Of a stretch of DNA of 64,000 nucleotides, positions 4,937-35,499 are shown piece after piece; positions within the stretch are counted from its first letter, which is position 1; each line of letters starts with the position of its first letter. The stretch lies in contig JBBRCK010000003.1 in assembly GCA_038205015.1 (NCBI GenBank), forward strand, positions 2,527 to 66,526, written 5' to 3'. The DNA is from Candidatus Levyibacteriota bacterium. Its GTDB lineage: Bacteria; Patescibacteriota; Microgenomatia; Levybacterales; UBA12049. The notes under the pieces were generated by a model, which was not told the DNA's origin, did no database searches, and worked only from the letters and a program-made list of their open reading frames with translations. The position numbers were made by a program, and so were the translations under genes.

Positions 4937-4945
4937 TTTTTCAAG

Positions 4946-5030
4946 CGGAGGAGGTGAGATTTGAACTCACGATCCCTTGCGGGATGGCGGTTTAGTAAAC
5001 CGCTGCACTAGGCCACTATGCGACTCCTCC
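4946..5030 (-). tRNA. Type II (long variable arm) tRNA, Ser-like (G73 discriminator); anticodon loop reads UUACUAA giving nominal anticodon ACU, which is atypical
   Basis: Manual cloverleaf on minus strand: acceptor GGAGGAG/CTCCTCC, D-arm GCA..TGC, anticodon stem GCGGT/ACCGC, variable hairpin ATCCC-GCAA-GGGAT, T-arm GTGAG-TTCAAAT-CTCAC; no encoded CCA. Confidence 0.65.
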
Positions 5031-5660
5031 GGGTATATTTATTATTTTATCAAACTGCTCATAAATTCCAATCACTTTTAGTTGTATTTTATAGTCAGAA
5101 TATCTTATTGTACATGTTCCCATATAATCTTTTCTATATTTTTTGCCCCTTGGTATCGTAATGGTAGGTTTTATAAATTGAGATGTGGGAATTTTTAATA
5201 AATTACTCCAATATTTACTTATTTCATTAAAATTTTGAGTGGAATGAATTTGGAGTTTTACTCGAAATTTTGCTTCATTTAGCGGAAAGCTTATGCGAAG
5301 CAGTCTTATAAACAATTGTAATAGTAAAGGATCGGAGTTTGTCATATCAAGTTTGTTAGTAGAGGGATATTTTGAACCTTCACACCAATAAATAATAGAG
5401 ACAAGTATTTTTGCGGTAGTTTTATCAAAAATTTTAAAGTTTTTGATTATATCTTTCTCTGATGTTTTTATATCGTTTCTTCTTCTCTCATATGTTTTTA
5501 ATAAAGTGTCCCAACGTGTTGAGGAATTATCGTGCTTGCACCAATTACGAATGGTGGTTGCCGGTATTCCTGTTATTTCCTGCAGCTTTGTAAAAGAATA
5601 ATGGTATTTTGTGCGTAGGTTTTGTGCTTTTTCTAAGTCTTTGTCTTGATATTTTCTCAT
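5016..5660 (-). CDS. HTH-domain protein with C-terminal LAGLIDADG-like motif (ILVSIIYWCEGSK); putative homing-endonuclease-like / tRNA-locus-associated protein; paralog of 33841..34533
   Basis: N-terminal HTH-like TKLQEITGIPATTIRNW; shares blocks with paralog (YWxEG, NxDP, KFRVKLQIHS/IKVELHLYS, ISKYWSNLLKIP/IKFWEKELGIP, GTC); start 3 nt after tRNA-Ser 3' end, stop TAG inside downstream tRNA D-loop. Confidence 0.55.
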   Translation of the reverse strand: MRKYQDKDLEKAQNLRTKYHYSFTKLQEITGIPATTIRNWCKHDNSSTRWDTLLKTYERRRNDIKTSEKDIIKNFKIFDKTTAKILVSIIYWCEGSKYPSTNKLDMTNSDPLLLQLFIRLLRISFPLNEAKFRVKLQIHSTQNFNEISKYWSNLLKIPTSQFIKPTITIPRGKKYRKDYMGTCTIRYSDYKIQLKVIGIYEQFDKIINIPGGVA

Positions 5661-5662
5661 GG

Positions 5663-5750
5663 TGGCGGAGGGTACAGGATTCGAACCTGTGGACGGCTAT
5701 TCACCGTCACGGCTTAGCAAGCCGCTCTATTACCACTCTAGCAACCCTCC
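5663..5750 (-). tRNA. tRNA-Ser (anticodon GCU), CCA encoded
   Basis: Minus-strand cloverleaf GGAGGGT...ACCCTCC-G-CCA, anticodon stem GCGGC/GCCGT loop TTGCTAA, long variable arm GACGG-TGAATA-GCCGTC, T-arm ACAGG-TTCGAAT-CCTGT. Confidence 0.85.
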
Positions 5751-9092: not shown

Positions 9093-9524
9093 TTAGGACA
9101 ATTCCTGTTCAATTCTTCTATTAAGATCTCGTTTTTTAATCGATTCTTTTTTTTCGTATTTTTTCTTACCTTTTCCAAGCGCAACCTCAAGCTTAATAAA
9201 GCCGTGTTTTAAGTATAAAGATACCGGTACCAAAGTTAAATTAGAGCCTTCAGTTTTTGATTTTAAAGAAATAATTTCCTGTTTATGTAAGAGAAGTTTT
9301 CTCGTTCTTCTATTGTCGAATCCTTCAATTTGTCCTGGTTGATAAGGGAAGATTTTAGCATTAACCAAATAAGCTTCACTTCCGACAATTCTAATAAAAG
9401 AACCGGTTAAATCTGCCTTGCCAAGTCTTACCGATTTTACTTCGTGGCCATAAAGATTAATTCCTGCCTCAAACTTGTCTGAGAGCTGGTAATTAAAAAA
9501 GGCTTTTTTATTGGTAATTTTCAT
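9093..9524 (-). CDS. smpB: SsrA-binding protein SmpB
   Basis: Conserved SmpB blocks: GHEVKSVRLGKADLTGSFIRI, NRRTRKLLLHKQEI, GSNLTLVPVSLYLKHGFIKLEVALGKGKKKYEKK. Confidence 0.9.
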   Translation of the reverse strand: MKITNKKAFFNYQLSDKFEAGINLYGHEVKSVRLGKADLTGSFIRIVGSEAYLVNAKIFPYQPGQIEGFDNRRTRKLLLHKQEIISLKSKTEGSNLTLVPVSLYLKHGFIKLEVALGKGKKKYEKKESIKKRDLNRRIEQELS

Positions 9525-9560
9525 TCCACAATAATACGTTAAAACCTAAAAAATGGCAAT

Positions 9561-11366
9561 TTATTTAAGGTTAATTTCGTATAATTTGCCCGAGGATAAC
9601 ACATACACTTTCTTATCTTTTTCAAAAACTTCAAAATCGCTGGCGTTTTTAATAAAAGAAGCTTGATATTCAGCCTTATAATTTCCGCTTTTATCCAATA
9701 CAACAATTCTTGAGTTACCGTTATCTAAAATATAAACATTGTCAAAGTCGATATTGGAATAAATTCTAGTTGGGTTTGAAAGGTTTTTACTTAAATTATT
9801 AAGAGTAAAATTGTCTTTTTTGCCCTTAGTAAATTTGATAATTGTTCCATTTGAAAAAAGCACATAGACCGAACTATCAATTGTCATTGCGCTGGCTTTG
9901 GAAAAATCGACAGAAGAGCTATCGGCTAAATAATTTGTTTTAGAAAAACCCGAGTCTGTTTGAACAAATTTTAATATTTGATTTTGTTTTTTATCTAAAA
10001 CGTAAACATTACCAAAATATAATGCTAGTCCGCCTGCGCTTTGCCAATCACTGTCATTTTTGATTAAAGTTTTTTGGTTGGAGCCGTCTTTTTTAAGAGT
10101 AAAAATATTATTGGCAGTTAATCCATAAATATTCTTATCATCCTCAAAATAATACAGAGCGCTATTTTTCGTTTCTGCCAAAAGTAGGGGGCTTAGCGAT
10201 AAATCGATTTGTTTTTGAGGTATTTTAGCAACTTGAGACGTGCTGTTTAAAGCCGTATTTACTTTAGCCAATAAATTTAAAACTTGTTTTTCCTGGGATG
10301 AATTTTTCGGGAAACTGCTTTTGCCATTTTCTAAAATTTCTTTAGCTTTGGTAAAGCTATCATTTGCTAAATTCTGATTTAAGCCAATCAAGCCTTGTCC
10401 TTCGTTATACTTTTTAGTAGCCGGAGGATAGATGCTTTCAAAAGCTGTTTTTATTCTAGTATCACCTTGTTTTTTTAGAGCAAAAAAGACACTTCCTACA
10501 AAAACTACAATAATAATTACAACAATTGTTAAAAGGACTTTTTTAGGATGGTTTAATCCCAAATTAGAAGTAAGTTTAGGGTGTGGCAATAAATTGGTAA
10601 AAGATTTTAATTTACTTATCAGGCCTACTTGTTGATTAATGGTTGATGAATAAAAAGGTTTTTTTTCTTCAACTTTTTCTTCTATTTCTTCTGTTTCTTC
10701 TGTTTTGTCATCTTCTATTGAAAAATGCAAATCCTTTTCATCTGCCGGTACTAATTCTTCAACAGGTTTTTTATAGTTAATAATAATCGAAGATGCGCCT
10801 GATTCATCTTTTTCATGTAAAAGGGGAGCGATATTTTCGGCCGCATCTTTAGGACTTAAGCCGTCAAGCATTTCAAAAAGAGTATCGGTTGAAATAACCT
10901 TGGAAAATTGCTTAGTTTGAAGTATTAAAACATCGCCGTCTTGTAAAAATCCGGAAGCAACTTTTATAGCTTTATTCTCCTGATCATTTGCTTCCAAAAG
11001 ATGTCCAAGTTTGCCTTCTCTTTTTAAGGATAACTTACCATCCCCTAAAATATAAACGTATAAAACATTGTCGATAAAAGCTCCGATCACAAAAGAACAG
11101 CTTATTTCTTGGGGGATTTTTTCGGAAGTTAGCAAAACTGCATTTTTGATTGATTCTAGATCTTTTGTTTCTAAGGTAAAAAATTCTTGTTCTAAGCTAT
11201 CAAGAATCTCTTTTCCCAAGACATTTAAGTAATCTTTTTCCTCAGATTCTTCTTGAGTTTCCAGAGAAAGCACTGCAAAGAGTTTGCCGGCATTATAGGC
11301 CTGAGCCCAACTGTAAACGTTTGGGTTGGCAACGATTTTAGCAAATGAAAGATTAGATTCAGTCAT
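9561..11366 (-). CDS. Membrane protein with N-terminal cytoplasmic degenerate PP2C-like domain, single TM helix and approx 300-aa extracytoplasmic domain
   Basis: PPM-like blocks FAVLSLETQ (in place of FAVxDGHGG), YVYILGDGKLSL (GDSR-like), DGDVLILQT (GD-LLLCSDGL-like); TM VLLTIVVIIIVVFVGSVFFAL; weak assignment. Confidence 0.45.
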   Translation of the reverse strand: MTESNLSFAKIVANPNVYSWAQAYNAGKLFAVLSLETQEESEEKDYLNVLGKEILDSLEQEFFTLETKDLESIKNAVLLTSEKIPQEISCSFVIGAFIDNVLYVYILGDGKLSLKREGKLGHLLEANDQENKAIKVASGFLQDGDVLILQTKQFSKVISTDTLFEMLDGLSPKDAAENIAPLLHEKDESGASSIIINYKKPVEELVPADEKDLHFSIEDDKTEETEEIEEKVEEKKPFYSSTINQQVGLISKLKSFTNLLPHPKLTSNLGLNHPKKVLLTIVVIIIVVFVGSVFFALKKQGDTRIKTAFESIYPPATKKYNEGQGLIGLNQNLANDSFTKAKEILENGKSSFPKNSSQEKQVLNLLAKVNTALNSTSQVAKIPQKQIDLSLSPLLLAETKNSALYYFEDDKNIYGLTANNIFTLKKDGSNQKTLIKNDSDWQSAGGLALYFGNVYVLDKKQNQILKFVQTDSGFSKTNYLADSSSVDFSKASAMTIDSSVYVLFSNGTIIKFTKGKKDNFTLNNLSKNLSNPTRIYSNIDFDNVYILDNGNSRIVVLDKSGNYKAEYQASFIKNASDFEVFEKDKKVYVLSSGKLYEINLK

Positions 11367-11369
11367 TTT

Positions 11370-11618
11370 TTATAGTATAACAAGTGAAACGATAAAAAGC
11401 GAAATAGTAATAAGCAATAATAAAAGCGCAAACATTTTAATAATTGCAAAGTCTTTTGAAGCATGAATAATATGGTCCATCGATAAAATCTGCCTAATAA
11501 CAATTAGCAGAAATACAATTGCAAAAAAATCGGCAATCAAAAAAACAAGCTTGAAAATTAAGAAAAATCCGTTAAGTTTAAAAAGATTATTAAAATTTAA
11601 AGTATTTAGATTATTCAT
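11370..11618 (-). CDS. Small hypothetical membrane protein (82 aa, 2 TM)
   Basis: ORF with two hydrophobic helices; overlaps next gene by 8 nt. Confidence 0.35.
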   Translation of the reverse strand: MNNLNTLNFNNLFKLNGFFLIFKLVFLIADFFAIVFLLIVIRQILSMDHIIHASKDFAIIKMFALLLLLITISLFIVSLVIL

Positions 11619-12276
11619 TTCTTTTTCCTATCAGATTTGCTACCACATGAACAGCGTCCTCAGGTTTTGGTACAGATTCAAAAATAAAGTTGTCTATTGT
11701 TCCTGCGGTTTGTACCAATACGTCCCCGTAATTAAAAATAGTTCTAAGTGCGCCAATCTGGGCATAACTAACGTCTTGCACTAGGCTTATTTTTGTCGAG
11801 GCAATATTTTTATAGACTAATCCTTGGAAGTCAACGTCAATGACCCTTTTTTCAGTCACAAGATCGATATTAAAATACCAAGTTATAAAGTTAATAAATA
11901 GATAAATTGTTACTAAAAGATAATAGTAAATCACAAAAAACATATTAAATTTTTGCGGAAAGATAAATATTGAAATTTTAAAATACATTAAAATTGGAAT
12001 AATAAAAAGTGGAGCTAAGAGTAGAAGCATGCTAATTGAAAACCAAGGTAGGTTTGTAATTAGCGCTTTTCTTATGAAAAGAATTACTTTTTCATCCACT
12101 TCTTGATTCTCAAAAGTTATGTCGTTTGGATTTTTGCAGTAGGTTGTAAAGAGTCTAACAGTACCTTCTTCCTCATAATATGAGGGAGTTGTGGAGATTG
12201 GTTTTTTATCCAAAACTTCGGTTGGTTTTTTGGCAGCGGGTGCTTCTTTTTCTTCTGCGACAAAAATATCTGGCAT
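11611..12276 (-). CDS. Membrane protein with bacterial PH (bPH_2/DUF304-like) architecture: 2 TM hairpin followed by soluble beta-rich domain
   Basis: Architecture (TM pair then ~90 aa domain RVIDVDFQGLVY...) only. Confidence 0.4.
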   Translation of the reverse strand: MPDIFVAEEKEAPAAKKPTEVLDKKPISTTPSYYEEEGTVRLFTTYCKNPNDITFENQEVDEKVILFIRKALITNLPWFSISMLLLLAPLFIIPILMYFKISIFIFPQKFNMFFVIYYYLLVTIYLFINFITWYFNIDLVTEKRVIDVDFQGLVYKNIASTKISLVQDVSYAQIGALRTIFNYGDVLVQTAGTIDNFIFESVPKPEDAVHVVANLIGKRNE

Positions 12277-12277
12277 T

Positions 12278-14080
12278 TTATCTTTCTACATTATACAACG
12301 GACCGACAATTTGTATACTCGCAGGTGCCCTAAGGTTAAAATAATTTTTAAAATCACTTCCGGAGAAGTTTGTGCTTTGGCCATCTCCCGATACGCTTAC
12401 CGAAGATGTTTTTCCTGATCCAAAATCAGCAGAGATAGAAATGCTATCAATTGAAGAATAGGGAGTTACTCCCCTTGATGAAAGTTCCTGCCTCACTTTT
12501 GCCCCGTCCCAAGTGTCTGTTCCAGCAGGATTTGGTTTGTCAACTTGGTATAAGTGGTTTGTGGTACCTGAGTCCTTCTGTGCCAAAAGCAAGACATTTA
12601 CTATGTCAGCGGCTTCGGAAGATTTAAGCCAGGCAGTTTTATTATAATCTGCTCTTGAACCCCAATCGCAGTAAAACCAAGGAGAGTTTTTATCATAGGC
12701 GTTGCTATTTAAATCGGAAAAACTATTAATAGCGCCGGTTGAGTCCTGCGCATTTTTTGTAAATGAGGTTCCTGACCAGCCGATATCTGCGGATGAGTGA
12801 ACATAGCCTCCATGCGTGGATGAAAACCAAGCGGTAATTGGGTTTCCACCGCTGGACATCACAATGCCGGCAGTATCTGATACTGCTTGCTTCCAGGAAT
12901 CCGAATTTTCTTCGCGTTTAACAACTTGGCAGGATTGGCTGGGGCAAATCGAAGATGCACCGTTGTTGGTTTTTGATAAAGCGTAGCTTCTGGCGGCAAT
13001 TGCTTGTGCTTTTAATGATTCAGATGGCCAGGCTGCTGGGACTTCGTAAACATGTTTTAGATACTCCTCGATACCCCAATTGTCGTCAAAGGATTGTCCG
13101 TACTCATTAGATCCAACTACGTGAATATTGATTCCGGTATTATATCCGGTAGTATAGTCGGCGTTATAATAGGCTTTTAAAATTTGCTCTGCATTTTGAC
13201 CCGCCTCTGCTCTTGCTTTTGCGCCGTATTGATTTAATCCCACCCGATTGGGGACACCGTAGCTAAAAAAACCAAACTTGGGTGAAAAACCCGGGTCCTT
13301 GCCGACGTCTGAGGAGCAACCACCTTGAGTGTTATAGGCATAAAGTGGAATATTAAGTCCGTTTAGTCTGGTGCTTAAAATGCCTTGTTGAATGGAGTTA
13401 AGTTGGGAGAGTTGATTAGTAAGTGTTGATTGATAAGCTTTTGCGCCGGATACAATTTTATCAAGTTGTGCGGATTGGGCGTCGAGGTTTGCTTTTAGAG
13501 AACTCAAGCTTATTTCTTTAACCTCTAAATCTTTCTTTTTATTTTCCAAATCCTGGATTGTGATTACAATATTGGTAATTATTGCCTTATCCCTGTCGGC
13601 ATTGGCTTTTTGGTATCCCAAAATTTGGGTGAATTCCGATGCGGAATTGGCTGATAAGAAAATAACTAACGGGGAGTTATAGTATGATTTAATGTAATAA
13701 TCTCTGATAGTTTGATTTAAAATATTTTGCTGCTTTTCCATCTCTTTATAACCTTGGTCTATCTGTTTTCTTTTTTCCGATAAACTAAATTCAATTGATG
13801 AGACGGTGTTTTTTATGCCTTTAATTTGCGTATTTAAACTGTTAAGTCTTGATTGAAGAGGAGTAGTTGCATTAATTGAAGACTGGAGTGCTTGATTAAT
13901 AGTTGCTTCGCATTGCTTTAACAAATCTTGGCAGGCAGAGCCAAAGCCGTTATTGCCACCGCAAGCATTTTGGACATTGGACATATCGCAACTGGTATCT
14001 TGAGCTTTGGAAAAAGGAATTAAAACAATACCAACCGTTAAAAAGATTATAGAAAAAAATAAAAAGAGGATTTTTTTCAT
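12278..14080 (-). CDS. Secreted coiled-coil protein with C-terminal SpoIID/LytB domain (peptidoglycan remodelling)
   Basis: Signal peptide, long Q/N/L-rich coiled coil, SpoIID block IEEYLKHVYEVPAAWPSESLKAQAIAARSYALSK. Confidence 0.7.
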   Translation of the reverse strand: MKKILFLFFSIIFLTVGIVLIPFSKAQDTSCDMSNVQNACGGNNGFGSACQDLLKQCEATINQALQSSINATTPLQSRLNSLNTQIKGIKNTVSSIEFSLSEKRKQIDQGYKEMEKQQNILNQTIRDYYIKSYYNSPLVIFLSANSASEFTQILGYQKANADRDKAIITNIVITIQDLENKKKDLEVKEISLSSLKANLDAQSAQLDKIVSGAKAYQSTLTNQLSQLNSIQQGILSTRLNGLNIPLYAYNTQGGCSSDVGKDPGFSPKFGFFSYGVPNRVGLNQYGAKARAEAGQNAEQILKAYYNADYTTGYNTGINIHVVGSNEYGQSFDDNWGIEEYLKHVYEVPAAWPSESLKAQAIAARSYALSKTNNGASSICPSQSCQVVKREENSDSWKQAVSDTAGIVMSSGGNPITAWFSSTHGGYVHSSADIGWSGTSFTKNAQDSTGAINSFSDLNSNAYDKNSPWFYCDWGSRADYNKTAWLKSSEAADIVNVLLLAQKDSGTTNHLYQVDKPNPAGTDTWDGAKVRQELSSRGVTPYSSIDSISISADFGSGKTSSVSVSGDGQSTNFSGSDFKNYFNLRAPASIQIVGPLYNVER

Positions 14081-29214: not shown

Positions 29215-29346
29215 AGTTAAATATAGGTAATCTTGGTGTAAATCCAGGGCTGTGCCGCAACTGTTAAAGTCAGAAAACTATATTTAATTTAAATGCCCGA
29301 GCAGGACACTATCATATCCTTCTCGGAATAAGAGAAGGATTTTTTT
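29215..29346 (+). promoter_or_regulatory. Cobalamin (B12) riboswitch with intrinsic terminator expression platform, upstream of DUF4430-membrane-PduO operon
   Basis: AGGUAAUCUUGGUGUAAAUCC, GCUGUGCCGCAACUGU, AGUCAGAAAAC match Cbl riboswitch core/B12 box; terminator CCTTCTC-GGAATAA-GAGAAGG + T7 at 29318-29346. Confidence 0.6.
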
Positions 29347-30818: not shown

Positions 30819-33770
30819 ATGGACGACGCTGCTCAGAAACAAAATCCAAATCCGAATTTGAAACCCGATCAAGTTTTAGTAAATGGCCAACCGCAGGTAA
30901 ATAATCAACAACCCCCACTAGTTGGTACAGCCAACAAAGAAGCTGGAGTGAGTACTCCATATATTGAACGCTCTCAGCCGGAGATTAAAACTGACTTTTC
31001 TACTCAGGGATTTATTCAAAATACTCAAGCACCTGTTCCGCACGTTCCTGAAGTAGGCCTAGAAGCTAGCGCAGAATCAACACCTGTACAAACAGAGCCA
31101 ACCGGCAAGGTTGTTTTGCCGATGACAGAAGGCGAAGCAGACAAGACTTTAAATAAGAGCCAGTCGAAATTTAATTTACATGAAAATATAGAAGGTGAAT
31201 ATACAGAAGATTCATTACCGTTTTTTGCAACGTTAATAAAAAAAATTTTTAAAGAAATGCGCAAAAGACTTGTTCCCGGTCCCTCAATGTTAGCATTCTT
31301 GCCGCTTATTCCTATGGCTTATGCACAACAAACAGTTGACTTATGTCCAAGAGGAAACTTTCGCATATTATGCTTTCTTACTGCTCAGCGGGCTGTGACA
31401 ACAGTGTCAAGTTCAAATTCTTCAGGGGCAAATATTTTACTGGCAATTTTTTTAGTACTGGTAATTTTATCTGTAACAGTTTTATTAATTCTTGGAATTT
31501 TATACCTTTTATTCATTTGGTATAAAAACAGGGATAGAGAAAAACAATCTCTTGAATCAACGCTCTTACAGATTGCAGTTCCTAAGGATAATGAAATAAA
31601 AATCGATGCCGCAGAACAGCTTTTTGCAAGTTTTTCCGGAATACGAGCTCATGGAATGTTTGCTTTTTTAAAGAATCCTCCGCATATCTCCTTTGAAATA
31701 GTGGGAATGTCCGAGGATATAAAATTTTATATTTATACCCCAAATAAATATAGAGATATGGTAGAAAAACAAATTAATGCCTCATATCCGGATGCAGAGA
31801 TAAGGGTGGTTGAGGAAAAAGGAGCTAAAGAGGGATATATTATTGGTAATGAATACAATATTTTCAGTAAAGATGGAAAAGTTGCTTTTGCATCGTTAAA
31901 ACTGAAAGATTCAAATTATAAGCCTTTAAAAGTCTACAAAGACTTTGCAGTTGATCCGCTGGCTTCAATCACTTCGGTTTTAGCTAAAATGAGTCATGGA
32001 GAAGGTGCGGCAGTTCAGATTTTAATAACAGGTGCTGATTCCAAGTGGAGTAAGATGGGGAGAAAATTTATCTCGGGTGTCAAGAAAACAGAATCAAATC
32101 CCGAGACCGCTAAGTATTCGGCAGACCCTAAAGAGCTGGAGGCAGTCGAGGGTAAAGTATCCAAACCCGGCTTTCAAGCGGTAGTAAGGCTTGTGGTGTC
32201 TTCAAGTTCGCAAGAAGCAGCCACGGTGCACCTTGAAAATATTATTAATTCCTTCGGACAATTTGAAGGATATAACGCTTTTACTAAAAATAAACACTGG
32301 CTTAAAGGGAATTTTATAACAGATTTTGTCTATAGATTTTTCCCATCGGGCGGTAATCTTTCGATTCTAAATAGCGAAGAATTAGCGAGCATGTTCCATT
32401 TTCCAAATAAAAGTGTTACTACGCCTCATATTTATTGGATTAACGCAAAAAGAGCTCCCGCGCCGGCACAAATTCCGGATTCAGGACTATATCTTGGTAT
32501 GAGTACTTTTAGGGGAATTGCTAAACCTGTATATATGAGAGATGACGATAGAAGAAGACACACTTACATTATTGGAAAAACAGGTGTTGGAAAATCGGAA
32601 ATGTTAAAACAAATGATTCTCCAGGATGTTAATGAGGGAAAAGGACTTGCGGTAATTGATCCGCATGGAGATTTAATCGAAGATGTTATGAAAATGATTC
32701 CTCCGGAAAGAGCAGAGGATGTAATCTTATTCGATCCTTCGGATACTGAAAGACCGCTGGGATTAAATATGTTAGAGGCAAAAACTGAGCAGGAAAAACA
32801 CTATATTGTTTCTTCAATCGTAGGACTTATGTACAAGCTTTACGATCCAAACAAGACCGGCATCATTGGCCCTAGATTTGAGCATGCCATTAGAAATGCA
32901 ATGCTTACGGTAATGAGTGAACCTGGAAGCACTTTTATAGAGGTGGTAAGAGCCCTAACCGATGCAAATTTCGTCCAAGAGCTACTTCCAAAAGTGCAAG
33001 ATCCGATAGTCAGGCGTTACTGGACAGACCAGATTGCTCAAACTAATGATTTTCATAAGTCCGAAACTCTTGATTATATAGTTTCTAAATTCGGAAGATT
33101 TGTTACTAACAAAATGATTCGAAACATTATCGGACAAAGTGAATCTGCTTTTGATTTCAGAAAGATAATGGATGAGGGGAAGATTCTTTTAGTTAATTTA
33201 TCTAAAGGAAAAATCGGAGAAGAAAACGCAGCCTTTTTAGGCTTAGTTTTGGTTCCTAGAATTTTAATTGCCGCCATGAGCAGGCAAGATATTGCACAGG
33301 AAGATAGAAAAGACTTTTACCTGTACGTTGACGAATTCCAGAATTTTGCAACTCCTGATTTTGCCCAAATTCTATCCGAAGCCAGGAAGTTTAAATTAAA
33401 CTTAATCGTTGCCAATCAGTTTATCGGACAAATGGATGAAGATGTTAAAAACGCGATTTTTGGAAACGTTGGAACAATAATGTCATTTAGAGTTGGCGTA
33501 ACAGATGCAAATTATCTGATGCATGAATTCCAACCGGTTTTTACAGAGACAGATTTAATTAATGTTGATGTTTATAACGCATATGTAAAGACAATAGTAG
33601 GGAACGAGCCGGTTACGCCTTTTTCCATTGATACTTCAAAAGATATGACTAAGGAAAAGGGCTTAGAGAATCCAAGAGTGGCAGAACTTGTCAGGGAGCT
33701 TTCCAGGCTAAAATATGGAAAAGATGTGGCGAGCCTTGAGGTTAATATTGCGCAAAGAGCCAGGCTGTAA
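30819..33770 (+). CDS. Membrane-anchored P-loop ATPase of FtsK/HerA superfamily (VirD4/TraD/TraG-coupling-protein-like); Q/P/N-rich disordered N-terminus (~160 aa), 2-3 TM, C-terminal ATPase
   Basis: Walker A YIIGKTGVGKSEML, DPHGDL, Walker B LYVDEFQNF, NLIVANQF; low-complexity N-terminus NPNPNLKPDQVLVNGQPQVNNQQPPL. Confidence 0.6.
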   Translation: MDDAAQKQNPNPNLKPDQVLVNGQPQVNNQQPPLVGTANKEAGVSTPYIERSQPEIKTDFSTQGFIQNTQAPVPHVPEVGLEASAESTPVQTEPTGKVVLPMTEGEADKTLNKSQSKFNLHENIEGEYTEDSLPFFATLIKKIFKEMRKRLVPGPSMLAFLPLIPMAYAQQTVDLCPRGNFRILCFLTAQRAVTTVSSSNSSGANILLAIFLVLVILSVTVLLILGILYLLFIWYKNRDREKQSLESTLLQIAVPKDNEIKIDAAEQLFASFSGIRAHGMFAFLKNPPHISFEIVGMSEDIKFYIYTPNKYRDMVEKQINASYPDAEIRVVEEKGAKEGYIIGNEYNIFSKDGKVAFASLKLKDSNYKPLKVYKDFAVDPLASITSVLAKMSHGEGAAVQILITGADSKWSKMGRKFISGVKKTESNPETAKYSADPKELEAVEGKVSKPGFQAVVRLVVSSSSQEAATVHLENIINSFGQFEGYNAFTKNKHWLKGNFITDFVYRFFPSGGNLSILNSEELASMFHFPNKSVTTPHIYWINAKRAPAPAQIPDSGLYLGMSTFRGIAKPVYMRDDDRRRHTYIIGKTGVGKSEMLKQMILQDVNEGKGLAVIDPHGDLIEDVMKMIPPERAEDVILFDPSDTERPLGLNMLEAKTEQEKHYIVSSIVGLMYKLYDPNKTGIIGPRFEHAIRNAMLTVMSEPGSTFIEVVRALTDANFVQELLPKVQDPIVRRYWTDQIAQTNDFHKSETLDYIVSKFGRFVTNKMIRNIIGQSESAFDFRKIMDEGKILLVNLSKGKIGEENAAFLGLVLVPRILIAAMSRQDIAQEDRKDFYLYVDEFQNFATPDFAQILSEARKFKLNLIVANQFIGQMDEDVKNAIFGNVGTIMSFRVGVTDANYLMHEFQPVFTETDLINVDVYNAYVKTIVGNEPVTPFSIDTSKDMTKEKGLENPRVAELVRELSRLKYGKDVASLEVNIAQRARL

Positions 33771-33840: not shown

Positions 33841-34533
33841 ATGGCAAGAGTTATTGATAGACAAAAAGCAATTGAGTTAAGAAAGAAAGGTCAAACTTAC
33901 AGCGAAATAAGGCATAAGCTGAATATTTCTAAAAGCACGCTTTCTGATTGGTTATCAAAATTTCCGCTAACTGCAGAACAGTTAATTAAGCTTGAAAAGA
34001 GTAGAAAACGAAATAACTTTTTGGGCATAGAAAAAATTAGATTAACAAAACAAAGGAAAAGAGAAAATCGAATAAATACTATTTATGAAATAGAAAAAAA
34101 ACGTTGGCGGTCTTTAAGTATTAAAGAACTTGAGTTGGCGGGCCTTTTCCTTTATTGGGGAGAAGGGAGGAAAAACCTAAAAAGCGCCTTGGCAATTAAT
34201 AATACAGATCCACAAGTGGTTAAATTTGCCTTACGCTGGATGACAGAAGCATTAAAAATTTCCAAAAACAGAATTAAAGTAGAATTGCATCTTTATTCGG
34301 ATATGAATATATTAAGCGAGATAAAATTTTGGGAAAAAGAGCTTGGAATTCCAAAGTTTCAATTTTATAAGCCTTACATAAAAATAAATACTAAAGCCGC
34401 AGTTGACCATAAGGGGTTTGGGCATGGCACATGTGGGTTGATCGTAAATGATGTTAGGCTAAAAGAAAAAGTTATGATGAGTATTAAGGCAATTTCCAAT
34501 CGATGTTCTACGAAAATTGAAGCTATGGTATAA
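33841..34533 (+). CDS. HTH-domain protein with LAGLIDADG-like motif (ELAGLFLYWGEGRK); paralog of 5016..5660; stop 12 nt before tRNA-Ile
   Basis: HTH GQTYSEIRHKLNISKSTLSDWL; conserved blocks shared with paralog (see 5016..5660). Confidence 0.55.
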   Translation: MARVIDRQKAIELRKKGQTYSEIRHKLNISKSTLSDWLSKFPLTAEQLIKLEKSRKRNNFLGIEKIRLTKQRKRENRINTIYEIEKKRWRSLSIKELELAGLFLYWGEGRKNLKSALAINNTDPQVVKFALRWMTEALKISKNRIKVELHLYSDMNILSEIKFWEKELGIPKFQFYKPYIKINTKAAVDHKGFGHGTCGLIVNDVRLKEKVMMSIKAISNRCSTKIEAMV

Positions 34534-34545
34534 TTATCTTTACTT

Positions 34546-34617
34546 GCGCCTGTAGTTCATCGGTAGAACAATTGTCTTATAAACAATAGGTGTTTGGTTC
34601 GACTCCAAGCAGGCGCA
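34546..34617 (+). tRNA. tRNA-Ile (anticodon UAU)
   Basis: Acceptor GCGCCTG/CAGGCGC, D GTTC..GAAC, anticodon stem ATTGT/ACAAT loop CTTATAA, T-arm TTTGG-TTCGACT-CCAAG, discriminator A. Confidence 0.75.
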
Positions 34618-34638
34618 CAGCGTCTTAATTTTTTTGCT

Positions 34639-35499
34639 TTAAAGTTCGGTTAAAACTGAAGAATCTTTGCCGCGTTCTGGCACATACTGGAGATATCTTT
34701 CGGTTGTTGAAAGTCTTTTATGCCCTAAAACCTTAGATAGGGAAACTAGTGACACCCCATGTTTTAAGTGATGAGCAACGAAAGTATGTCTTAAATCATT
34801 TACCTTGGCATCTTTAATTTCTGCTAATCTAAAATACCTTTCAACCGCGGTTCTAATGTTTCTAATTAAGAAAGGTTTTCCGGATTTAGTAATAAAAAGG
34901 TGGTCGTCAGTCACTTTTGGCCTTAAATCTGAATATCTAGCTAATGCTTCTTGAGCTCTTTTGTTTAATGGAACAATTCTGTCGGCATGTTTTTCAAAAG
35001 GTGAAATATGTAGCGTGTCTTTGGTTACGTCGGAAAGTCTAAGGTTAGCAAGCTCACCGATTCTAATACCGGTTTGCAAGAGTAATTCTATAACAGCAAA
35101 CATTCTGGCGTCGTTTCTTGCAGCATCGCGTAGCGCTCTGTATTCGGTCGGAGTAAGTATTCTAGGTGGAGCAAGCTGGTACTTAGGGTGTGAGACTAAA
35201 AGGGAAGGGTCGTCGGTAATATATTCGCTTACTTTTAAGAATCTATAAAAAGTTCTGGTGGAGTTAATTTTTCGAGAAATTGACTTTGGAGTATAGCCTT
35301 CTTTACCTAGTTTTGCCAAAAATGCTTCGATATCTTCTTTTGCAACTTCATGAACCTGATTTCTTTGAAGCTCTTCTAAAAAGGCTATTAATTGGTCAAT
35401 ATCTTTACCGTATGCAACCACAGTAGAAGCAGACTTTTTGTTGTCCTTTAAAAAGTTTTTAAATTCATTATGGGCATCTCTTAATTTGATTGGTTTCAT
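34639..35499 (-). CDS. Tyrosine recombinase XerC/XerD-like
   Basis: N-terminal SAM-like core-binding domain; C-terminal R...HxxR...Y: LRHTFVAHHLKHG...GHKRLSTTERYLQ. Confidence 0.85.
   Translation of the reverse strand: MKPIKLRDAHNEFKNFLKDNKKSASTVVAYGKDIDQLIAFLEELQRNQVHEVAKEDIEAFLAKLGKEGYTPKSISRKINSTRTFYRFLKVSEYITDDPSLLVSHPKYQLAPPRILTPTEYRALRDAARNDARMFAVIELLLQTGIRIGELANLRLSDVTKDTLHISPFEKHADRIVPLNKRAQEALARYSDLRPKVTDDHLFITKSGKPFLIRNIRTAVERYFRLAEIKDAKVNDLRHTFVAHHLKHGVSLVSLSKVLGHKRLSTTERYLQYVPERGKDSSVLTEL

Follow-up and report, generated by a model that had tools for sequence, protein, structure and literature searches.

A Patescibacteria-wide membrane ATPase of the DUF8128/VirD4-like family with a putative small partner protein joined to its N-terminus

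The open reading frame and its parts

We analyzed a 64-kb stretch of DNA (the window) from a Candidatus Levyibacteriota bacterium and focused on one long open reading frame (ORF), 30819..33770 on the plus strand, which begins with ATG and encodes 983 amino acids. The ORF is real and not a chance reading frame, as its homologues match with E = 0 across ~790 aa. It encodes a vertically inherited, chromosomal membrane ATPase of the DUF8128/VirD4-like family, which is found throughout the Patescibacteria. Judged by homology, its Q/P-rich first ~150 residues are the product of a small partner gene that has been fused in frame to the ATPase gene.

The ATPase carries the Walker A motif GKTGVGKS at residues 586–593 (nt 32574–32597), a DPHGD motif at residues 614–618 (nt 32658–32672), and the Walker B motif DEFQNF at residues 838–843 (nt 33330–33347). 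An initial annotation, made from the letters of the sequence, had recognized this ORF with the same three motifs and had described the product as a membrane-anchored P-loop ATPase of the FtsK/HerA/VirD4 superfamily. Both descriptions hold; the protein has a transmembrane (TM) segment and intact Walker motifs. It had overlooked a domain of ~310 aa, DUF8128, which separates the TM segment from the ATPase and has a fold like that of the VirB4 N-terminal domain.

From the N-terminus, residues 1–152 (30819..31274) match a hidden Markov model (HMM) of the small partner protein with E = 9e-25. This part is rich in Q, P, E, and T, looks disordered, and closes with an amphipathic helix, FFATLIKKIFKEMRKRL; the composition of residues 1–146 is biased accordingly (P 10%, E 10%, Q 9%, T 8%, N 7.5%). 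Residues 147–169 (31257..31325), MRKRLVPGPSMLAFLPLIPMAYA, form a signal-peptide-like hydrophobic segment, as placed by alignment with the N-termini of homologues. It is followed by a loop of residues 170–203 (31326..31427), predicted to be extracytoplasmic by the positive-inside rule, with two conserved cysteines (CPRGNFRILC), and by the main TM helix, residues 204–235 (31428..31523), which hydropathy defines and which leads into the positively charged KNRDREKQ. The DUF8128 domain (PF26449), a cytoplasmic alpha/beta domain, covers residues 241–551 (31539..32471) according to homologue annotation, AlphaFold2 (AF2) modelling, and Foldseek. The RecA-fold ATPase domain of coupling-protein type (VirD4/TrwB/TraD-like) extends over residues 557–941 (32487..33641), as delimited by Pfam, PDB, and Foldseek matches. 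In the AF2 model it contains an all-alpha insertion between Walker A and Walker B (residues 656–786, 32784..33176). A conserved helical tail with the motif ELSRLKYGK, placed by alignment and AF2, ends the protein (residues 943–983, 33645..33767).

The usual architecture of the family is one TM helix, DUF8128, a VirD4/TrwB-type ATPase with the all-alpha insert, and the conserved C-terminal tail, whereas the signal-like segment and the short outside loop before the TM helix are optional. We built an AF2 model of residues 147–983 from 69 homologues with 45–85% identity, and its numbering (837 residues) is used for the following elements. The TM segment is a long helix (H56–91), and the insert consists of nine helices at residues 511–640, which would correspond to the all-alpha domain of coupling proteins. 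The tail is modelled as two helices, H806–820 and H824–836; S816, R817, and G821 are invariant, and Y820 nearly so, among 14 sequences from diverse classes of the candidate phyla radiation (CPR).

Family, distribution, and fold of the ATPase

The closest homologues, 74–87% identical and ~790 aa long, come from Levybacteria and other Patescibacteria, and the nearest relatives are metagenome-assembled genomes (MAGs) of Levybacteria, in agreement with the CPR-type host that the initial annotation had supposed. PF26449 is present on every homologue listed (41–87% identical). The closest ones carry PF10412 and/or PF12696 in addition, and precomputed matches to PF02534 also occur. Their database names are "type IV secretion system DNA-binding domain-containing", "TraM recognition domain-containing", and "DUF87 domain-containing". 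Our local Pfam scan gave the window protein no PF26449 match, presumably because that copy of Pfam lacked the newer model; membership of DUF8128 follows by close homology, since the listed homologues carry the precomputed annotation. A full-text literature search found no paper that mentions DUF8128.

We collected 80 related loci from species-representative genomes, which span Levy-, Woese-, Shapiro-, Gottesman-, Dojka-, and Saccharibacteria, Uhr- and Doudnabacteria, and Paceibacterota. Among them, full-length identity falls from 85% to 38% roughly with taxonomic distance, reaching 38–45% across CPR classes, as expected for vertical inheritance. The family is large: 6,171 clusters match at E ≤ 1e-30 out of 1.84 billion 50%-identity representatives. 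The Walker motifs are invariant both in the 14 sequences from diverse CPR classes and in 69 homologues, and the 14-sequence alignment also displays a conserved RAEDVI-F-P-D--RP-GLN block, ILSEARK, and a C-terminal SRLKYGR. Longer relatives of 1,400–2,000 aa have TPR repeats or nothing besides, and are without DUF8128. Two loci hold additional copies. In L079 (87–2901), one ATPase paralogue is divided between two proteins, a DUF8128 membrane protein of 425 aa and an ATPase of 510 aa, and in L056 (15138–18167), a second copy of 1009 aa lies ~3 kb downstream of the first. These paralogues fit the roughly two homologues of type IV coupling proteins (T4CPs) per genome given in a recent survey of Patescibacteria (PMC12102498).

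The initial annotation had likened the motor to coupling proteins, and several profile and structure searches agree with it. Pfam TrwB_AAD_bind matches residues 575–892 with 39.6 bits against a cut-off of 20.5 (E = 4e-10), and TrwB and DotL rank first in sequence and profile searches of the PDB, although the sequence match to TrwB is essentially confined to the P-loop region. NCBIfam gave sub-threshold matches to SXT_TraD and to the CD1115 VirD4-like family, and all of its T4CP equivalogs scored far below their cut-offs. The AF2 model of residues 147–983 has a pLDDT of 83.8 and a pTM of 0.68. Its Foldseek alignment to TrwB (1e9s) covers ~410 columns on chains of ~424 residues, including the all-alpha domain, with a target-normalized TM-score of 0.59–0.62 and an r.m.s.d. 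of ~5 Å, at just ~16% sequence identity. The motor is thus closest to the conjugative coupling proteins, with TrwB, DotL, and Cag-beta as the nearest ones.

A different relationship emerged for the domain in front of the motor. When the whole model was compared with the PDB by Foldseek, the best matches were full-length TrwK/VirB4 chains of the R388 type IV secretion system (T4SS), with E = 2e-16 to 8e-12 over ~870 columns, followed by HerA (4d2i; 1.5e-11), TrwB (2.5e-11), and then Cag-beta. Modelled alone, the DUF8128 domain has a pLDDT of 87.9 and a pTM of 0.88, and its best 14 PDB matches are all TrwK/VirB4 chains (E = 4e-8 to 1.6e-5, probability 1.00, query-normalized TM-score ~0.5). The next match is an unrelated fold with E = 2e-4 and a TM-score of 0.29. 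According to these models, DUF8128 folds like the VirB4 N-terminal domain, which would make the protein a VirB4-like two-domain ATPase with a motor of coupling-protein type.

Three other identities were considered and rejected. The protein is not a VirB4 by sequence: CagE_TrbE_VirB gave no Pfam match, AAA_10 reached only E = 0.05 (13 bits against a cut-off of 27.5), NCBIfam VirB4_plasma scored 16 bits against 590, and VirB4 was not found by the PDB profile search. For HerA, the DUF87 profile (HerA central domain) passes its cut-off with 26.5 bits against 23.2 on the P-loop region 579–649 alone, NCBIfam helicase_HerA scored 16.5 bits against 970, the N-terminal domain matches VirB4 and not the HerA barrel, and no NurA gene lies nearby. 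Membership of a housekeeping FtsK/SpoIIIE clade, which the initial annotation had named as evidence against its own proposal, was also looked at. The FtsK_SpoIIIE profile stays below its cut-off (14.8 bits against 24) and touches residues 569–601 around the P-loop alone, no gamma domain was found, and the protein has one strong TM segment rather than a multi-TM N-terminus.

The N-terminal part, its stand-alone counterparts, and membrane topology

The ~790-aa homologues span just 77–80% of the window protein, and the remainder has its own counterparts. Clustering of the ORFs from the 80 related loci first revealed the partner genes: at 31 Microgenomates loci, a separate same-strand ORF of 114–236 aa lies directly 5′ of the ATPase gene and is homologous to window residues 1–~150. 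The HMM introduced above was built from 36 stand-alone small proteins and, at 37 loci, matches an ORF that precedes the ATPase gene on the same strand. The small proteins have a variable, Q/P-rich N-terminus, one or two E-x-GV motifs, an LP(L/M)T--E motif, and at the C-terminus an amphipathic helix that reads S-RWLAEWC-R-IK or, in the clade of the window, FLATLIKKIF-KM; the stand-alone partners end in LIKKIFNKMHKKITGGK before the stop codon in L001 and in LIKKFFEKMRFLGKK in L081. Sequence analysis and Pfam and NCBIfam scans found no signal peptide, TM helix, Pfam family, or NCBIfam family for them. In 23 of the 36 loci measured, the partner stop codon overlaps the ATPase start or lies ≤7 nt away, with ATGA overlaps in L003, L011, L016, and L020, which suggests translational coupling of the two genes. 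The gene is therefore not the lone one that the initial annotation had seen, because its relatives possess a conserved and apparently translationally coupled small partner.

Small same-strand ORFs of other sequence families are also found directly 5′ of the ATPase gene in Parcubacteria, Saccharibacteria-type, and other loci (for example, L059 9401–9922, L078 6163–6540, and L018 9799–9984), one family ending in LIRAWLRLIPGVNKFFLEQEAKIKADK. Their function may be analogous to that of the Microgenomates partner.

The origin of the fused ORF can be traced by comparison with L081, the closest syntenic relative, which has the same gene order and 76% identity. There, the partner has 143 aa, and the ATPase (842 aa) begins 4 nt past its stop codon with the signal-peptide-like MFTNYKKFIPFLTLALYLFKAAPSFA followed by ETNVTLCP. 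The junction in the window reads LIKKIFKEMRKRLVPGPSMLAFLPLIPMAYA followed by QQTVDLCP. Compared with L081, the partner stop codon, the spacer, and the first ATPase codons are missing, and the two genes are joined in frame. As the two genes of L081 are in different frames, the fusion would need a deletion of a specific length class, such as 28 nt. A second, independent fusion exists in L054 (884 aa), where the partner sequence (SLPLTPVEIESS and further on LRWLGEWCVRQIRK) is followed at once by the first residues of DUF8128, VLLPRDNEI, without an intervening TM segment. By the Rosetta-stone principle, this fusion is evidence for joint action of partner and ATPase and for a cytoplasmic position of the partner.

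The 983-aa form could instead be an assembly or sequencing artefact, or a recent and functionally neutral lesion, in which case the living cell would have two separate genes, for a partner of ~150 aa and for an ATPase of ~837 aa that starts at M147; this alternative concerns the N-terminus alone and not the identity of the ATPase. The window fusion rests on a single assembly and was in no other dataset searched, which weighs against a natural fusion. Every related locus examined, including the fully syntenic L081, has two ORFs, except for the window and L054. The best 120 database matches to the small-partner profile are all stand-alone proteins of 106–190 aa, with no fusion among them. The exact junction 30-mer had 0 matches in the metagenome contigs of the Joint Genome Institute (JGI), and a protein-based scan of the JGI metagenomes with the first 260 residues returned one distant locus and did not find the window junction. 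Moreover, the segment from M147 would alone be a plausible signal peptide, like the start of the 842-aa homologues. On the other hand, the genes are joined in frame with homology to both kept on each side of the junction, including through an A8/T5 homopolymer run, a deletion of such a specific length class would be an unlikely product of random error, L054 provides a second natural fusion, and the fused topology, with both ends in the cytoplasm, is physically consistent. On balance we regard the artefact or neutral lesion as unlikely, while taking it as a serious contender.

The side of the membrane on which the N-terminal part resides was assessed from hydropathy and charges. Residues ~204–235 are the sole strongly hydrophobic segment, with a 19-residue Kyte-Doolittle mean of up to 3.4, and nearly all homologues have a single TM segment. 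Segment 147–169 has a mean hydropathy of ~1.4 (Kyte-Doolittle, calculated by hand), below that of a typical TM helix, and aligns with the signal-like N-termini of the 842–848-aa homologues P0019, P0023, and P0026, for example MRQFYKKLISIFTLIILLYKAVPSYA followed by QTTVDICP. These three homologues also keep the cysteine loop as CPxGxFNxxCF, which is absent from the ~790-aa homologues. Positive charges lie N-terminal of segment 147–169 (KKIFKEMRKR) and C-terminal of segment 204–235 (KNRDREK). In the fused protein, the cytoplasmic partner part would be followed by the weakly hydrophobic signal-like segment, acting as the first membrane-spanning segment, then by the outside loop of ~34 aa with its two cysteines, the TM helix, and the cytoplasmic DUF8128 and ATPase domains, so that the membrane would be spanned twice. 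The partner itself would bind the membrane-proximal end of DUF8128 through its C-terminal amphipathic helix, as an adaptor or a regulator.

The fused part is therefore most likely cytoplasmic, because these residues are homologous to a small protein without a signal sequence and because L054 fuses the partner to the cytoplasmic DUF8128 without a TM segment. The initial annotation had proposed a Q/P-rich extracytoplasmic N-terminus; the biased, Q/P-rich composition stands, whereas the homology to a signal-less partner and the TM-less fusion in L054 speak against the extracytoplasmic side. Alternatively or additionally, initiation at a possible internal start, M147 (nt 31257), would yield an ATPase with an ordinary cleavable signal peptide. 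No Shine-Dalgarno motif was found at the starts of the window genes, so starts at M1, M147, and M157 are not distinguishable this way. A promoter and terminator scan of the window found promoter-like sites at the level expected by chance, none of them decisive. In several window genes a TATAAT-like box lies near the ATG, so leaders may be short or missing.

Genomic context, possible roles, and known systems

The ATPase gene resides among housekeeping genes. Upstream are genes for NrdR, a class II ribonucleotide reductase, DUF4430 and DUF6580 proteins, and a PduO-type cobalamin adenosyltransferase; downstream are an HTH_23 protein, tRNA-Ile(TAT), a XerC/D-type recombinase on the minus strand, DivIC, a MurD-like ligase, TGT (tRNA-guanine transglycosylase), TrpRS (tryptophanyl-tRNA synthetase), and FtsH. 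The position between a B12 cluster and a tRNA-associated helix-turn-helix (HTH) paralog, as the initial annotation had it, is correct, and so is its remark that no other T4SS or conjugation genes are nearby, as far as recognizable genes in the 64-kb window are concerned. The window was scanned with Pfam on essentially all ORFs of at least 100 aa and with NCBIfam on those without a Pfam match, and no VirB3-, VirB6-, or VirB8-like gene was recognized. The gene order in Microgenomates is NrdR, ribonucleotide reductase, PduO, often a ~370-aa zinc-ribbon protein, the small partner, the ATPase, XerD (minus strand), and DivIC. In Parcubacteria, CysRS (cysteinyl-tRNA synthetase) is upstream, a DnaX-like gene is downstream, and the small upstream ORFs are different. 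Recurrent neighbour clusters were considered as partners in other CPR lineages and set aside, because they are housekeeping or unfamiliar genes and not consistent partners: c10 is DnaX-like, c30 is CysRS, c39 is likely a small polytopic membrane protein, and c13 is a zinc-ribbon protein.

Several further observations concern the neighbouring genes. The zinc-ribbon protein, ~350–425 aa with a C-terminal zinc ribbon and no family, lies between the cobalamin adenosyltransferase and partner genes in 12 relatives (L001 4859–5962, L081 4211–5356, for example) and is absent between 30777 and 30819 of the window. The gap between PduO and the fused ORF is just 41 nt, and a strong terminator-like hairpin at 29316–29340 lies just before the DUF4430 gene, so the ATPase may be co-transcribed with the DUF4430-DUF6580-PduO cobalamin genes. 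On the minus strand at 9093–14080, the window encodes SmpB, a 601-aa protein with a weak NHL-repeat match, an uncharacterized 221-aa protein, and a 600-aa SpoIID-domain protein. At up to 18 other loci (such as L018, L021–L023, L027–L030, L032–L034, L036, and L052), genes of this block directly follow the DUF8128 ATPase, whereas in this genome the block is ~17 kb away on the opposite strand. Two HTH_23 paralogues with a LAGLIDADG-like core, at 33841–34533 (+) and 5016–5660 (−), have the cores ELAGLFLYWGEGRK and IIYWCEGSKY and abut tRNA genes, one tRNA-Ile(TAT) and the other two tRNA-Ser (tRNAs at 34546–34618, 4945–5030, and 5663–5750); HTH_23 homologues are directly downstream of the ATPase in 6 other loci. 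ARAGORN assigned the tRNA at 34546–34618 as tRNA-Ile with the anticodon TAT. Most bacteria decode AUA with a lysidine-modified CAT tRNA, and a tRNA-Ile(TAT) may be unusual for a bacterium. At the edge of the window, an ORF of 920 aa (11–2773, +) has a GC content of 0.44 against a window mean of ~0.35, a strong GC skew, and an A/R/E-rich product; it had no Pfam or NCBIfam match and may be a foreign or fast-evolving large protein.

The tyrosine recombinase (34639–35499, minus strand), the HTH_23 protein, and tRNA-Ile immediately downstream could mark an integrated conjugative element of which the ATPase would be the coupling protein and the locus a remnant. However, the recombinase is XerC/D-type (Phage_int_SAM_1 and Phage_integrase), and its length (~286 aa) and position are nearly constant in ~30 loci, so it is a housekeeping gene. 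The GC content near the ATPase gene, 0.36–0.38, is like that of the flanks, the gene order is conserved across genera, the window scans found no relaxase or mating-pair genes, and protein identity tracks taxonomy. A conjugative-element remnant is thus extremely improbable.

The same recombinase, together with DivIC, could also suggest an FtsK-like motor for chromosome segregation and dimer resolution. The ATPase belongs to the same superfamily and is membrane-anchored, and the XerC/D-type gene (286 aa) and DivIC are found at +1 to +5 genes in ~30 of the 80 loci, a linkage that extends to a Dojkabacteria locus and to the rearranged locus L047. Yet the linkage to XerD is absent in Parcubacteria and Saccharibacteria-type loci and therefore looks like lineage synteny. 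In addition to the P-loop-only FtsK_SpoIIIE score and the missing gamma domain, the protein has one TM segment versus four or more, its motor is nearest to TrwB and DotL, and the saccharibacterium TM7x has a separately annotated ftsK, TM7x_00370 (PMC10768705). We consider an FtsK-like function very unlikely.

Evidence linking the family to T4SS comes from outside this locus. By tblastn, full-length homologues with 25–30% identity and 87–98% coverage were found on Bacillales and haloarchaeal megaplasmids, and partial matches on plasmids of Streptomyces, Staphylococcus, Clostridium, and Sulfolobus. On the Natrinema plasmid pNVE500, the order is a T4SS_pilin gene, three unassigned genes, a 1102-aa "conjugal transfer protein", a 395-aa DUF8128 ORF that matches the window DUF8128 domain with E = 4e-16, and a 1027-aa TraM-recognition ATPase; no significant sequence similarity links the protein of 1102 aa to the window protein. 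A Pontibacillus homologue is near an Mbov_0395-type pilin-like gene and a DUF87 ATPase. These pilin-containing plasmid clusters indicate that the DUF8128 ATPase is there the second, coupling-type ATPase of a monoderm/archaeal-style T4SS. In Patescibacteria, according to PMC12102498, VirB4 is present in 2,417 of 3,035 genomes, in a clade nested in the monoderm/archaeal MPF-FATA class (a mating-pair formation type) and often near dnaA, and 5,713 VirD4-type T4CP homologues occur in 2,918 of the 3,035 genomes (96%), and just 148 of these homologues are near virB4. The essential T4SS cluster of S. epibionticum is without recognizable coupling and relaxase proteins (PMC10633639).

The most likely role of the ATPase, to which we would give an even chance, is that of a remotely encoded coupling or energizing ATPase of the chromosomal, MPF-FATA-type T4SS-like apparatus located near dnaA in most Patescibacteria. 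As TrwB/VirD4 and VirB4 do, it would act as an ATP-driven ring, probably a hexamer, at the inner side of the membrane, and its task would be to feed or power export, with proteins or nucleic acids as substrates, rather than plasmid conjugation. The part in DNA uptake or host-interaction machinery that the initial annotation had suggested is speculative.

A number of observations weigh against this role. At the level of the protein, TraG-D_C narrowly misses its Pfam cut-off (21.3 bits against 22), canonical coupling proteins are without a DUF8128-like domain whereas the window protein has ~310 aa of it between the TM helix and the ATPase, and Levybacteria conserve the protein to 75–87% over ~790 aa, an exceptional degree for a coupling protein by judgement rather than by measured comparison. 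At the level of the genome, the neighbours are all housekeeping genes in conserved synteny, and no T4SS, relaxase, pilin, or competence family was found in the window, in which several ORFs without family assignment might be divergent components. Among the 80 related loci, no T4SS component is consistently linked to the ATPase, and in most of them no T4SS or relaxase association was recognized. PMC12102498 further reports that epibiotic growth of S. epibionticum depends on the T4SS genes but not on its t4cp homologue, and that T4CP homologues are more widespread than VirB4 (96% vs 80% of genomes); both points fit a T4SS-independent or redundant role.

The ATPase and its partner could accordingly be an autonomous membrane motor, a housekeeping translocase that was exapted from an ancestral conjugation coupling protein and could serve nucleic-acid import or export, or protein export, without docking to a VirB4/VirB6 channel. 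Besides the dispensable homologue and the wider distribution just mentioned, with just 148 of the 5,713 homologues near virB4, the purely housekeeping and syntenic context across Microgenomates, the different housekeeping context in Parcubacteria, and the very strong conservation with a vertical-looking identity gradient speak for it, and the authors of PMC12102498 consider exaptation possible. On the other side, full-length homologues outside CPR are inside pilin-containing T4SS-like clusters, coupling proteins in ordinary systems are often encoded away from virB4 (PMC12102498), no alternative channel or substrate gene is consistently linked among the 80 loci, and MAG incompleteness may account for part of the gap between 96% and 80%. 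Such a T4SS-independent motor, the main rival to the T4SS role, seems rather unlikely to us. Still more doubtful is the broader proposal that the DUF8128 ATPase and its partner form a phylum-wide, T4SS-independent core translocase, exapted from a monoderm/archaeal conjugation coupling protein, that powers nucleic-acid or protein traffic at the interface between epibiont and host. If that were true, the retention of a VirB4-type N-terminal domain in front of a T4CP-type motor would also place the ATPase between VirB4 and coupling proteins as an evolutionary intermediate, and the fused genes of the window and L054 would identify the partner as an integral subunit.

Secretion machines are leading candidates for the means by which Patescibacteria, which live in dependence on other cells, obtain what they need. 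The single gene described here is an ordinary member of an abundant, already catalogued, and uncharacterized family. What the analysis adds is an anatomy for the orphan VirD4-type family: a VirB4-like N-terminal DUF8128 domain, a motor of coupling type, and a conserved, apparently translationally coupled small partner with natural fusions to the ATPase in two lineages. This anatomy yields hypotheses on partner binding, docking to a T4SS, and topology, and corrects the idea that the Q/P-rich region is an external domain for host contact.

Compared with known systems, the window protein shares the ASCE (additional strand, catalytic glutamate) P-loop superfamily with FtsK/SpoIIIE and HerA, but is without the gamma domain, the multi-TM N-terminus, and a match to the HerA-type barrel. 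With TrwB (R388), VirD4, TraD, and DotL, it has in common an N-terminal membrane anchor, a RecA-type P-loop domain with an all-alpha insert, the Walker A and B motifs, and a DPxGD-like motif after Walker A. It differs from them in having one strong TM segment instead of two, and its gene is in a housekeeping context with no linked relaxase or T4SS recognized in the window. VirB4/TrwK, the ATPase of the R388 T4SS inner-membrane complex, is likewise built of two domains, with an alpha/beta domain at the N-terminus and a RecA ATPase at the C-terminus, and its chains are the best Foldseek match for the whole model and the sole convincing ones for DUF8128. A small partner encoded upstream also accompanies VirB4, namely VirB3, in some cases as a fusion (PMC12102498), whereas the small partner described here is without TM helices and matches neither VirB3 nor PrgI, and Patescibacteria have a separate bona fide VirB4.

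The haloarchaeal and Bacillales megaplasmid ATPases, such as that of pNVE500, have the same DUF8128 domain followed by a TraM-recognition ATPase, with the DUF8128 part annotated as a separate ORF in Natrinema. They reside beside a T4SS pilin and a second large conjugal-transfer ATPase and are plasmid-borne, unlike the core chromosomal window gene. The closest known counterparts are the orphan VirD4-type T4CP homologues of Patescibacteria (Quinonero-Coronel et al. 2025, PMC12102498), which are of the same phylum and of the same VirD4/TraD/TrwB-like class at the HMM level, and are likewise chromosomal, near-universal, and usually far from virB4. The window gene is almost certainly one of that set. 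To the features given in the available part of the report, which does not describe DUF8128, its VirB4-like fold, or an abutting partner, the present locus adds all three, with the partner fused to the ATPase in the window gene.

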